Source: Psilocybe cubensis
Taxonomy: Eukaryota
Assembly: GCA_017499595.2 (NCBI GenBank)
Contig: CM039006.1
Location: 868,001 to 932,000, forward strand
Length of the DNA: 64,000 nt
Direction of reading: 5' to 3'
Both the position numbers and the translations under genes were made by a program. The notes under the pieces are model-generated. The model did no database searches and was not told the origin of the DNA. It saw only the letters and a list, made by a program, of their open reading frames with translations. Positions 6,815 through 9,409 of this stretch are shown piece by piece. Numbering within the stretch: position 1 is the first letter of the stretch; each line of letters opens with the position of its first letter.

Positions 6815-7099
6815 TTATTCGCAGATTGGAAACGTGCGGGGATGGCATCCGCAGGGACCTGGGGCATCATTTTTTGCAGCTCAGGAATGGTTAATATCAT
6901 AAAGATAAATATGCGTACAAATTGGTTCTGGATTTACCATGAAACAAAAACTATTAGAAAAACAATTTATCCACATATAGATACTTGAATAAAGCTTACC
7001 TGTAGGTTCGGGGGCAGGGATTGGGTTTGCAATGACTGTAGTCAATATCATTGCGGCAACGACGGCATGAAGAGCAACTGAGAGTTGTGGGAGCTGCAT
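6815..7099 (-). CDS. 50-aa secreted Cys-rich peptide precursor A: MQLPQLSVALHAVVAAMILTTVIA-NPIPAPEP-TEPICPCGCHPRTFPICE
   Basis: Exons 7099-7000, 6927-6919 (9-nt micro-exon) and 6858-6815. Introns are GTAAGC..CAG (72 nt) and GTACGC..CAG (60 nt). Signal peptide present; same structure as the paralog at 9152. Confidence 0.8.
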
Positions 7100-8268
7100 T
7101 GTTCCTATGGTTTGAGCAAGGAAACTTTGTGGTAGGTCATCTCTACTGGGCTCATTTATATCTTAAACGACGTAGTAAATTTAACTGAGCAAGGAGAACC
7201 GCAATACCCGCACTTTTTATGGGGGAAAAGCACGGTTTCAGTATGATTTCCGGAGTACATATTCATCTCGTATATTGAATGATTGAATCCCACATATATT
7301 TAGCTTGGGTGATCACACTGCTATGAATCAAGTACACTCCATGTATATATAGATCTAGTTCGGAGTGTTTTTGATGATTTATCAAAGAAATATAGTTTAG
7401 GTGTGCATTCCAAACTATATTCCTCTGCATCGTTGAAAACGACACGCAGACAAACAAAGATTCAATAATCTAAATAATGTTAGTTTGAGGATGCAGATAA
7501 GCGCCAGCAATACCAGTTCTTTACTGCTTCATTCTTCTACTTTTTACAACTATCCCAATGTAAACACTAGTTTATTCTGGATCTACCTTTCTGCGTAAAA
7601 GAAGCCTGGATATATATGAACCAGTTTGCACATTGAGATACAATTCTCCGGCCCCTATCTTCCACTAGGCTACATATCCAAAGCACGTTCTTTCTAAAAT
7701 TGTTATCTATGCACAATCCGGCAACCAAATTATATGGCGGTGAATTTCCTTGTTTAATTAAACTTACCTACAACGTCAAGCTCATGCCTAGTCTCTCCTA
7801 GACAGACTTCGATATGGTGTGAGCTCATGCCATGGGCATGTCAATTGCTTCAATCCCTACTTTTAAACTCAATAACGGAGTATTAGGCACGTACATAGCT
7901 CAAAGCCAAGGGAGGGGCCTACCCCTCAGAGGCTATAACATAAAATACAAAAAAATACAAAAAACTTAAGAACAGAAGCCCAAAACACCCTATACTGTTA
8001 TTACAGAGCACACAGCAACAGTATCGAGTTGCATATGACTACCAGGCACAAAGCCTAAGTCTAAGCAAGACTCTCATCGAATGATAAACTGAAGTTATCA
8101 ACCGTGTCTACGAGTTACATAATGCATTCTAGTTCTCATTTTTTGTCTCTTTTGTGAACGTTTAATTTGCCATCATGATGAAATATTTGGTTAGATCATA
8201 TTCCTCCCAGTTCCTCATTCATTATTTGTCACGCATCAAAGTATGATTCAATCACAAAAAGCATTCGA

Positions 8269-8540
8269 TTAAAGCGATTGGCAACTTCCAGTAGGGTGGT
8301 CGCCGTATGTGCAAGAATTCATTATAACACCTAGTGCATCGGCTCAGCTTATGGATGGTCAGCTATATACAGAATATGCATAAAAGGTACTACTACGAAA
8401 CAAAAGAAAACAATTCATCCACATCTAGTATAAAGCTTACTTCCAACTTCGGCGGCAGGGATCGGGTTTGCCAAAGCTGTAGTCATCATCATTGCAGCAA
8501 ATGCGATGTGAAGAGTAACTGAGAGTTTGGGGAACTGCAT
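8269..8540 (-). CDS. Diverged paralog B of the secreted peptide family (altered splicing or pseudogene)
   Basis: Exon 1 (8540-8441) encodes MQFPKLSVTLHIAFAAMMMTTALANPIPAAEVG followed by a GTAAGC donor. The homologous micro-exon donor reads TTATGC rather than GTAYGC. The last exon (8330-8269) reads xVIMNSCTYGDHPTGSCQSL*. Confidence 0.55.
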
Positions 8541-9151
8541 TGTTCCTTTGGTTTGAGCAGAGAAACGTTGTGGTGGGTCTTTTTGAGTGGGCTGATTTAT
8601 ACCTTATACGACGTAGGCAACCGCCATACCCACCATTGTTCTAGGAAGGCTGTGTACAAATTTGATTTCCTGTAGATTACATGTTTAGCCCGTAGATGAT
8701 ATATAATCTCCCATGTATTTTTACCATGAGAAAGGTTACACGCATGGCGCCCATTCGCATCTGTAAAGTAAAACTGCATCAGCTGCACGGTTTGTGCCTC
8801 TAACTCTGACTTTCGGCGGTGATGTCTCTGTAGTGCTTTGCAATCTATATTTTTCTGCAAAACATTGAAAAACCCGAGCAGATGCAAACACAAGAGTAAA
8901 GTAAAAATCCATTTATTTTATGGATACGAGTAAGCGCCAGCAGTGCTAATGCGATTGATTAATTGGGAGTGAATATGTAATGAGAAGAAAGTTGTACATA
9001 TGAAATAGATTTGCAACGGACAGCCATTTAGATTCCGAGCTAATGGCGGAGAATCTCCTTTTACAATTAAATTTATTTGCTTCGTCAAAGGTATATAATG
9101 TGCTCAATTGAGGTGACCTACGTTAAAGCATCCTTACTTTGTCCAAGCACA

Positions 9152-9409
9152 ATGCAGCTCCTCAAACTCTCAGTTGCTCTTCATGCGGTAGTTGTTGCTA
9201 TGATGTTAGTTGCCGCCATGGCCAATCCAATTCCCGAAGCTGAACGTAAGTTTTGCACAAGACTAGCTTTGATGATGTCTGATTTTCTTTTTCATAGCCG
9301 TTTGTACGTTTATTTGTTTAAATGAGTAGGCAAGTTTTCAACTGAAAATGCGTTAGGCTGGGATTGCGGATGCCCAGAACCCGGCCTGGGCGAGGTTTCC
9401 TGTGAATAG
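9152..9409 (+). CDS. 50-aa secreted Cys-rich peptide precursor C: MQLLKLSVALHAVVVAMMLVAAMA-NPIPEAEP-VCWDCGCPEPGLGEVSCE
   Basis: Exons 9152-9245, 9298-9303 (6-nt micro-exon) and 9357-9409. Introns are GTAAGT..TAG (52 nt) and GTACGT..TAG (53 nt). TATA at about 9092. Confidence 0.8.

Follow-up and report, generated by a model that had tools for sequence, protein, structure and literature searches.

The stretch of Psilocybe cubensis DNA considered here (64,000 nt of contig CM039006.1, hereafter the window) holds three paralogous units, g1 (6815-7160, minus strand), g2 (8269-8601, minus strand) and g3 (9092-9409, plus strand). In our view they are best explained as a small, lineage-restricted family of genes for secreted prepropeptides with two disulfides, the messages of which are spliced through micro-exons. 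We put the probability of this explanation at about 0.55. In the scheme that we favor, a TATA-box promoter and a short 5′ untranslated region (5′UTR) would precede an exon 1 that codes for a cleavable signal peptide (the first 24 residues) and a pro-piece of X-Pro/X-Ala dipeptides. In g1 and g3, a symmetric micro-exon of 9 or 6 nt and then a short last exon would complete a prepropeptide of 50 residues. The exported part would be 26 residues long, and 18 after removal of the dipeptides by a dipeptidyl aminopeptidase of the Ste13 type; it would be Pro-rich and acidic, and the Cys of the frame C-x1-2-CGC-x7-9-CE would form two disulfides. The broader statement, that g1-g3 are real, compact and unannotated genes encoding secreted Cys peptides, appears quite likely from the features of the DNA described below.

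The coordinates of the gene models are given in Table 1. The first-pass annotation, made from the letters of the window, had proposed that splicing yields two precursors of 50 residues, in both of which the first Cys codon is split by intron 2. The joined exons of g1 and g3 translate exactly so, and the split codon consists of the last T of the micro-exon followed by GT or GC. The predicted tails read C-x1-CGC-x7-CE-stop in g1 and C-x2-CGC-x9-CE-stop in g3; the common Cys frame that had been claimed is thus present in these two genes, and the third paralog, g2, falls outside it. The four predicted introns have the donors GTAAGC or GTAAGT (intron 1) and GTACGC or GTACGT (intron 2), and end in YAG, which a branch-like CTNAN motif precedes by 11-26 nt. 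Inclusion of the micro-exon raises the number of Cys from three to four and creates a motif, E-P-[IV]-C, that is shared by the two genes across the junctions. The length differences between them are in frame: 6 nt in the pro-piece and 6 nt between CGC and CE.

Table 1. Predicted elements of the three paralogous units (positions in the window)
Element	Position	Strand	Remarks
g1 TATA box	7154..7160	-	TATAAAT; ~55 nt upstream of ATG; conserved in all three units (alignment)
g1 exon 1	7000..7099	-	ATG, 24-residue hydrophobic signal-type leader, NP-IP-AP-EP; phase-1 end AG|GTAAGC
g1 intron 1	6928..6999	-	72 nt; GTAAGC...CTAAT...CAG
g1 predicted micro-exon	6919..6927	-	9 nt; completes Glu, codes for Pro-Ile and first base of Cys codon; sole in-frame canonical candidate
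g1 intron 2	6859..6918	-	60 nt; GTACGC...CTGAG...CAG
g1 last exon	6815..6858	-	remainder of first Cys, P-CGC-x7-CE, stop TAA
g1 joined coding sequence	7099-7000/6927-6919/6858-6815	-	153 nt; 50 residues, 4 Cys
g2 TATA box	8595..8601	-	from three-way alignment
g2 exon 1	8441..8540	-	leader with NP-IP-AA; phase-1 GTAAGC donor as in g1
g2 candidate single intron	8331..8440	-	110 nt; holds decayed micro-exon; lacks strict internal donor; conserved CTGAG branch
g2 candidate last exon	8269..8330	-	frame homologous to g1 last exon; two Cys; 2-codon extension beyond ancestral stop
g3 TATA box	9092..9099	+	TATATAAT; conserved in all three units (alignment)
g3 exon 1	9152..9245	+	leader with NP-IP-EA-E; phase-1 donor C|GTAAGT
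g3 intron 1	9246..9297	+	52 nt; predicted from splice signals
g3 predicted micro-exon	9298..9303	+	6 nt; completes Pro, codes for Val and first base of Cys codon
g3 intron 2	9304..9356	+	53 nt; GTACGT...CTGAA...TAG; related strain has 9317 T>C
g3 last exon	9357..9409	+	remainder of first Cys, WD-CGC-x9-CE, stop TAG
g3 joined coding sequence	9152-9245/9298-9303/9357-9409	+	153 nt; 50 residues, 4 Cys

The paralogy of the units is clear at both the protein and the DNA level. g1 and g2 have the same orientation and a spacing of 1441 nt, and g3 is inverted relative to both. When the three exon-1 peptides were compared with the window by tblastn, exactly three loci were found, 7099-7001 (minus), 8540-8442 (minus) and 9152-9244 (plus); the cross-matches had E values of 1e-9 to 2e-10, and the next best match had an E of at least 0.11. 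Scanning for open reading frames (ORFs) finds at these loci only read-through ORFs of 72, 41 and 75 residues, in agreement with the earlier claim of three paralogs that such a scan does not resolve. A repeat search of the window returned a direct repeat of 192 nt (6984-7175 and 8425-8616, 80% identical) and inverted arms of 75% and 72%. By blastn, 6959-7175 matches 8407-8616 at 78% and 7017-7197 matches 9054-9234 at 73%. The clear DNA homology covers only the promoter, the 5′UTR and exon 1 and ends early in intron 1. In the three-way alignment, all units have a TATA box ~55 nt 5′ of the ATG and the start context ACAATG. The leader extends over 31-33 open codons, is hydrophobic, has NPIP at its end and is followed by a phase-1 GTAAGY donor.

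The units might have been fragments of a transposon. Contig sets from four sequencing runs bear on this point: X1 and X2 are from DNA of a near-identical strain, X3 consists of spliced RNA-type contigs, and X4 is also of the RNA type. In the two DNA runs the depth over g1-g3 is that of single-copy DNA, as compared to ~270x over the dispersed repeat at 7837-8003, and the units are therefore not transposon copies; the transposon-fragment reading was rejected on this ground. Between g1 and g2, at 7789-7963, contig depths over a dispersed repeat add up to ~270-290x in DNA and 49-62x in RNA-type runs, as compared to 10-25x in its flanks. Many contigs diverge at 7822, 7903 and 7963, and in the related strain 19 nt are inserted at 7854. 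The repeat is probably a fragment of a transposon or a long terminal repeat (LTR), and one that is transcribed too.

Selection appears to have acted on the leader. Non-synonymous (dN) and synonymous (dS) divergence, estimated by NG86 over 31 codons and hence with a wide error, were 0.19 and 0.94 for g1-g3, 0.25 and 0.93 for g2-g3, and 0.21 and 0.32 for g1-g2. A dN/dS of ~0.2 at a dS of ~0.9 indicates that the reading frame is kept open and constrained through a long divergence. Conservation of the promoter and purifying selection on the leader are both supported.

A relative of the leader exists outside the window. A leader profile searched against 1,835,955,588 representative proteins had a sole match, KAH9477883.1, a hypothetical protein of 102 residues, also from Psilocybe cubensis (E 3.3e-8, 49 bits). 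Here the leader occupies residues 47-77, behind an N-terminal extension, and the conservation reaches into the 5′UTR read as protein. The extension probably results from a mis-called start, since g1-g3 show a conserved TATA box and 5′UTR at that place. The annotated continuation of this protein does not show the Cys frame. A second profile search returned KAH9477883.1 only, among 92 candidates. A word-indexed protein search with region 1-40 of the g1 read-through ORF gave no candidate, a metagenome scan matched 82 pattern stretches of which 0 were confirmed, and in a protein atlas the best score, 0.78, was under the threshold for a lead. Pfam recognized 0 families in 5 of 5 ORFs, KAH9477883.1 included, which is a weak test as the ORFs were unspliced and were not the spliced cores. 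In the literature on small secreted, disulfide-rich, Ste13-processed peptides of agarics and on KAH9477883.1, supplementary tables being outside the scope, no matching family was found.

The Cys frame of the last exons occurs nowhere else in the window. A six-frame search of the 64 kb for the pattern CGC.{4,14}C.{0,3}-stop gave two matches, and both are the last exons of g1 and g3. Both lie at most 300 nt from a leader, on the strand of that leader, and in the frame that the splice model reaches. In 20 shuffled windows that served as the control, the pattern was matched 5 times in total.

The micro-exons were examined in the same spirit. For each gene, the stretch from the donor of exon 1 to the acceptor of the last exon was shuffled 20000 times. 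A shuffle was counted when it contained an internal micro-exon that kept the frame, was bounded by YAG and a GTRNGY donor, and left two sub-introns of 45 nt or more with two branch-like motifs. Such a canonical micro-exon was present in 37/20000 shuffles for g1 and 28/20000 for g3, i.e., in less than 0.2%, and one that also created a Cys in 18/20000 and 8/20000, respectively. One- and two-intron splice models were also enumerated, joining any GT to any AG, and ranked by a crude score. There were 68 such models for g1 and 354 for g3, with four or more Cys in 5 and 2 of them. In both genes, the micro-exon model has the top score among the models with at least four Cys and also among the two-intron models.

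Over all enumerated models, the top crude score in both genes goes to a simpler structure, in which intron 1 alone is removed and the genes have two exons. The products would be of 49 residues with one Cys (g1) and 43 residues with two Cys (g3), and the CGC...CE sequence would belong to the 3′UTR. The strongest local similarity of g1 and g3 downstream of exon 1 is at the end of the micro-exon and the donor of intron 2, and this similarity could be coding conservation; moreover, the read-through tails of g1 and g2 end at aligned stops. But the two-exon structure gives no reason why the CGC...C-E-stop frame, found nowhere else in the 64 kb, persists in g1 and g3 through length changes of whole codons. 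Nor does it account for a splice that enters this frame correctly in g1 as well as in g3, or for the presence of GTACGY, the branch motif and YAG in the two genes. The differences between the g1 and g2 tails are mostly non-synonymous (by inspection), and Cys counts of 1 and 2 provide no common frame. We consider the two-exon structure improbable.

Another departure from the three-exon models would be that the micro-exons, being symmetric, are skipped or alternatively spliced, so that three-Cys precursors are made alone or beside the four-Cys form. Both micro-exons are multiples of 3 between phase-1 introns, and skipping them keeps the frame, giving precursors of 47 (g1) and 48 (g3) residues with three Cys each; g2, if functional, also appears to do without one. 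The sizes of local introns speak against it. Skipping would require introns of 141 nt (g1) and 111 nt (g3), about twice the usual size, as compared to 48-67 nt for nine local introns. Three of the latter are those of a neighboring hydrophobin-like gene (67, 56 and 59 nt, from contig joints in run X3). The others belong to a helicase gene, where introns were deduced by aligning the Galerina helicase to the window; they measure 48-61 nt and include GTAAGC and GTACGT among their donors (6 of 8 gap zones, the other two having no GT..AG candidate). The sub-introns made by the micro-exons, 72, 60, 52 and 53 nt, fall within this range except that intron 1 of g1 is slightly above it. Skipping would also result in an odd number of Cys and would leave the conserved internal acceptor, donor and branch signals without explanation. 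Products that lack the micro-exon, alone or as a second form, are thus an explanation to which we give little credence. Micro-exons as such are ordinary in mushrooms, since a long-read annotation of Coprinopsis cinerea lists micro-exons of at most 15 nt in 1,165 gene models, or ~9% (PMC12230235). If the genes are real, inclusion of the micro-exon in the mature transcript is likely.

The leader is a candidate signal peptide. The mean Kyte-Doolittle hydropathy of residues 6-24 is 1.66-2.36 in the three units (2.25 in g1), and the residues at -3/-1 of the predicted A|N cleavage site are V/A, A/A and A/A. Counted in register from that site, there are four X-Pro/X-Ala dipeptides in g1, four in g3, three in g2 and two in KAH9477883.1. 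A pro-piece of repeated dipeptides had been proposed earlier, and the runs NP-IP-AP-EP and NP-IP-EA-EP are indeed in register; what all four leaders have in common is NP-IP only. STE13 homologues have been reported from many basidiomycetes, and in Pleurotus precursors that carry XP/XA appear to be processed (PMC9769878). Given real genes, we would rate the chance that the pro-pieces of g1 and g3 are trimmed by a Ste13-type enzyme at somewhat less than even.

The mature part of 18-26 residues is predicted to have a net charge of -1.5 to -6.3. For the 18-mers, the predicted charge at pH 7 is -1.5 (g1) and -4.3 (g3), and the reduced mass ~2003 Da and ~1883 Da, respectively. Closure of two disulfides would take 4 Da off each, and the 26-mers that keep their dipeptides would weigh ~2819 Da and ~2731 Da. 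A classical cationic, membrane-disrupting action is unlikely because the peptides are acidic. A conserved leader and promoter, combined with a core that has diverged almost wholly save for its Cys, would be expected of a secreted peptide whose target is external or changes fast, such as a competitor, a grazer or a receptor. Candidate roles are a toxin directed at a receptor or enzyme, a signal, or a metal- or redox-active peptide. Of the proposal of an unannotated family of defence or signaling peptides, the compact genes and the variable core with its kept Cys frame are supported; the role is unsupported, and the anionic charge speaks against a classical cationic antimicrobial mode.

The gene models could also be right and the chemistry different: the peptides might bind copper or zinc, act as an extracellular thiol-redox shuttle, or be the core of a ribosomally synthesized and post-translationally modified peptide. 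The Cys of the cores are densely clustered (C-P-CGC or C-x2-CGC), metallothioneins and redox-active tails typically contain CxC and CGC clusters, and the predicted peptides are acidic, with zero or one basic residue. Among 30 neighboring ORFs Pfam recognized no modifying-enzyme or metal-related gene, although an ORF scan is insensitive in an intron-rich genome, and hypervariable positions between the Cys fit a metal site poorly. Such alternative chemistry seems unlikely to us.

The third copy is the least regular. In-frame routes into a last-exon frame homologous to that of g1 exist from exon starts at 8342 or 8330 only, and 8330 is the better one. With the resulting intron of 110 nt, the g2 model codes for 53 residues, of which two are Cys; TAC stands in place of the middle Cys codon, and the frame runs on for two codons past the ancestral stop. 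Five of the 17 differences from the related strain lie in g2. Two are in exon 1: 8463 C>T is synonymous, and 8450 C>T replaces a Glu of the pro-piece by Lys. g2 may be a one-disulfide variant or, equally possibly, a decaying copy or pseudogene. The joint loss of the micro-exon Cys and one Cys of CGC keeps the Cys number even, which would fit a one-disulfide variant.

Several observations weigh against a family of micro-exon-spliced, two-disulfide prepropeptides. g2 lacks a strict internal donor, has another residue in place of the middle Cys and ends at a shifted stop. KAH9477883.1 diverges after NP-IP, its annotated continuation lacks the Cys frame, and it is the only homologue outside the window, so that the description as a mushroom family depends on that single match. 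The prediction of a signal peptide is based on hydropathy and on the residues at -3/-1. The pro-piece is short, with NP-IP as the only dipeptide run common to the four leaders. The charges predicted for the peptides, -1.5, -4.3 and -2.1, set them apart from most membrane-active defence peptides. By the crude score, the model in which intron 1 is removed and intron 2 retained surpasses the micro-exon model (7.5 vs. 7.0 in g1 and 8.0 vs. 7.5 in g3). No contig of the RNA-type sets X3 and X4 lies over g1-g3, which has no bearing on expression, and the four splice junctions are predictions. The dN/dS figures are based on as few as 31 codons. Finally, the best local DNA score in the 3′ half was equaled in 111/1000 shuffles for g1-g3, 20/1000 for g1-g2 and 20/1000 for g2-g3.

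The divergence between g1 and g2 can likewise be read in two ways. Identity is 43/51 in intron 1, 36/63 in the micro-exon and intron 2, 20/41 in the last exon and 19/35 in the 3′ flank. The low value in the last exon fits a faster change of the core. Gene conversion in the 5′ half, with no need to invoke selection on the core, would be an equally good reading because the entire 3′ half of g1-g2 is more diverged, and this also counts against the family as proposed. It should be noted that a contig of run X1 (depth 12.2) has joints at 7223>8653 and 8618>7177, and has the upstream region of g2 with a g1-like segment. The hybrid could represent a second haplotype, gene conversion between g1 and g2, or a further paralog elsewhere, and it suggests ongoing exchange between the copies.

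Taken further, these considerations lead to the idea that the units are remnants of a small gene that was once duplicated, now silent or in decay, their similarity reflecting common descent and gene conversion. The region is transposon-rich and gene-poor (Gypsy, KDZ, TET/JBP and CxC2), g2 looks degraded and has 5 of the 17 strain differences, one of them non-synonymous, the hybrid contig of g1 and g2 upstream sequences was seen in one DNA run, and protein databases gave nothing for the window's own ORFs. On the other hand, the leaders of g1 and g3 are open and constrained at a dS of ~0.9; both genes retain an intact TATA box, start context, stop, and set of splice signals and Cys codons; and the leader is conserved in KAH9477883.1. 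We see only a small chance that all three units are relics.

The surroundings of the units include the elements just named and a few others. The hydrophobin-like gene (10036-10784, minus strand) adjoins g3, begins with MQF (ATG at 10708) and was not recognized by Pfam as an unspliced ORF. The RNA-type contig of X3 that covers it has 35 mismatches in 571 nt, and comes from a diverged allele or a paralog; the introns are at 10217-10283, 10322-10377 and 10516-10574. Further along, at 11661-15049 (minus strand), there are three consecutive long ORFs of 333, 426 and 333 residues with no Pfam match, which may be one large lineage-specific gene or an unrecognized mobile element. A retrotransposon of the Ty3/Gypsy type (28531-33560) has a full-length ORF of 1298 residues with protease, reverse transcriptase, RNase H, integrase and chromodomain, and its flanks at 27996-28064 and 33925-33993 are identical and LTR-like. 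ORFs with a TET/JBP oxygenase, a KDZ transposase and a CxC2 domain lie at 23049-23837, 26802-27677 and 34420-35733. The association of TET/JBP, KDZ and CxC2 belongs to the Kyakuja-Dileera-Zisupton transposons and is typical of Agaricomycetes. There is also an ORF for an HLH transcription factor (48180-49676). The helicase gene (54719-58239, plus strand) is multi-exon and MOV10/Upf1-like, with an AAA_11 domain; its nearest annotated counterparts are in Galerina marginata (81%), then Gymnopilus (78%) and Agrocybe (77%). These identities place the host in the neighborhood of the Hymenogastraceae and Strophariaceae.

If the family is expressed as modeled, its products would count among the smallest gene-encoded disulfide peptides that mushrooms have been described to secrete. 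Precursors of 50 residues are too short to pass the length filters of many annotation pipelines. The micro-exon, such a filter and a start wrongly placed upstream would then jointly hide a gene family, one member of which, KAH9477883.1, has been filed as a hypothetical protein of 102 residues. The same features would provide a recipe for finding more such genes, a leader search followed by a search for the micro-exon and the Cys frame, and the peptides could be synthesized for bioassay. The current view of fungal biology would not change, as fungal genomes commonly encode small secreted proteins that are specific to a lineage. A bolder extension, which we regard as speculative and would not bet on, is that agarics of the Psilocybe/Galerina area harbor a hidden, fast-diversifying family of 18-residue, two-disulfide peptides with one structural Cys that arises only on splicing of the micro-exon, so that its inclusion or skipping switches between a closed and a free-thiol form. 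Such a switch would be a fungal counterpart of the diversification of conotoxins or of the micro-exon genes (MEGs) of schistosomes, and one that is invisible to standard annotation.

How do the units compare with the peptide families already known? The first-pass annotation had set them apart from MSDIN, borosin and KEP-type precursors, and the separation is borne out on the defining features of those families. In KEPs, a signal peptide is followed by several repeated cores with dibasic KR/RR Kex2 sites on their flanks. g1 and g3 cannot be placed with KEPs or dikaritin precursors: they have one core, no repeat and no dibasic site (there is a lone Arg in g1 and none in g3). MSDIN precursors have a conserved, non-hydrophobic leader of 10 residues, no signal peptide, a Pro-flanked core of 6-10 residues, a conserved follower and no disulfide frame. 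The MSDIN and cycloamanide precursors of Amanita and Galerina are also short, of agaric lineage and with Pro near the core, but the leader of g1-g3 is hydrophobic and unrelated to theirs. Excision at Pro by an enzyme of the POPB type is unlikely, as the leader is of the secretory signal type. In borosins the core is fused or adjacent to an alpha-N-methyltransferase domain; the precursors here are of 50 residues, and Pfam found no methyltransferase among the 30 ORFs scanned.

Other classes were set aside on similar grounds. Basidiomycete lipopeptide pheromones have no signal peptide, end in a CaaX box and are linked to STE3-type receptors. g1 and g3 have a hydrophobic leader and end in C-E-stop with no CaaX, and no pheromone receptor gene was recognized in the window (Pfam scan of 30 ORFs). 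Hydrophobins are proteins of ~100 residues with eight Cys in the pattern C-CC-C-C-CC-C, as compared to four Cys in 18 residues here. Derivation from the neighboring hydrophobin-like gene was also rejected, the similarity of the leaders not being significant (E of at least 4). Fungal defensins such as copsin and plectasin have a mature peptide of ~40-60 residues with 6-12 Cys and are usually cationic; membership in this CS-alpha-beta class was rejected for peptides of 18-26 residues with four Cys and a negative charge.

Closer analogies are found in the architecture of the precursors. In conotoxin-type superfamilies, too, signal and pro-region are conserved and the mature peptide is hypervariable except for its Cys framework; unlike them, g1-g3 are fungal, have another Cys framework and amount to three copies only. 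Promelittin is a prepropeptide trimmed by a dipeptidyl aminopeptidase. The pro-pieces of g1-g3 resemble those of such trimmed precursors (alpha-factor with Ste13, and basidiomycete KEPs with XP/XA motifs, PMC9769878) in having an X-Pro/X-Ala run before the core, and differ from them in having no dibasic Kex2 site and a single core that is not repeated. The MEGs of Schistosoma (PMC10526429) share with g1 and g3 small secreted products and micro-exons whose length is a multiple of three, so that the frame is kept on skipping. g1 and g3 differ from the MEGs in having one micro-exon and not a string of them, and introns of 52-72 nt and not of kilobases; there is no sequence relation.

The units also come close to the lineage-specific, effector-like small secreted proteins and small secreted cysteine-rich proteins of fungi. 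Like these, they have a predicted N-terminal signal peptide, an even number of Cys, no Pfam family, a tandem or inverted local duplication, a transposon-rich site and fast divergence of the mature part. They are unlike them in that g1 and g3 are far smaller, with a precursor of 50 residues and an exported part of 18-26, and in that a Cys codon would be built by the splicing of a micro-exon. It is plausible, then, that g1-g3 represent a new, small and lineage-restricted family within the known small secreted cysteine peptides of fungi, set apart by an unusual gene architecture.

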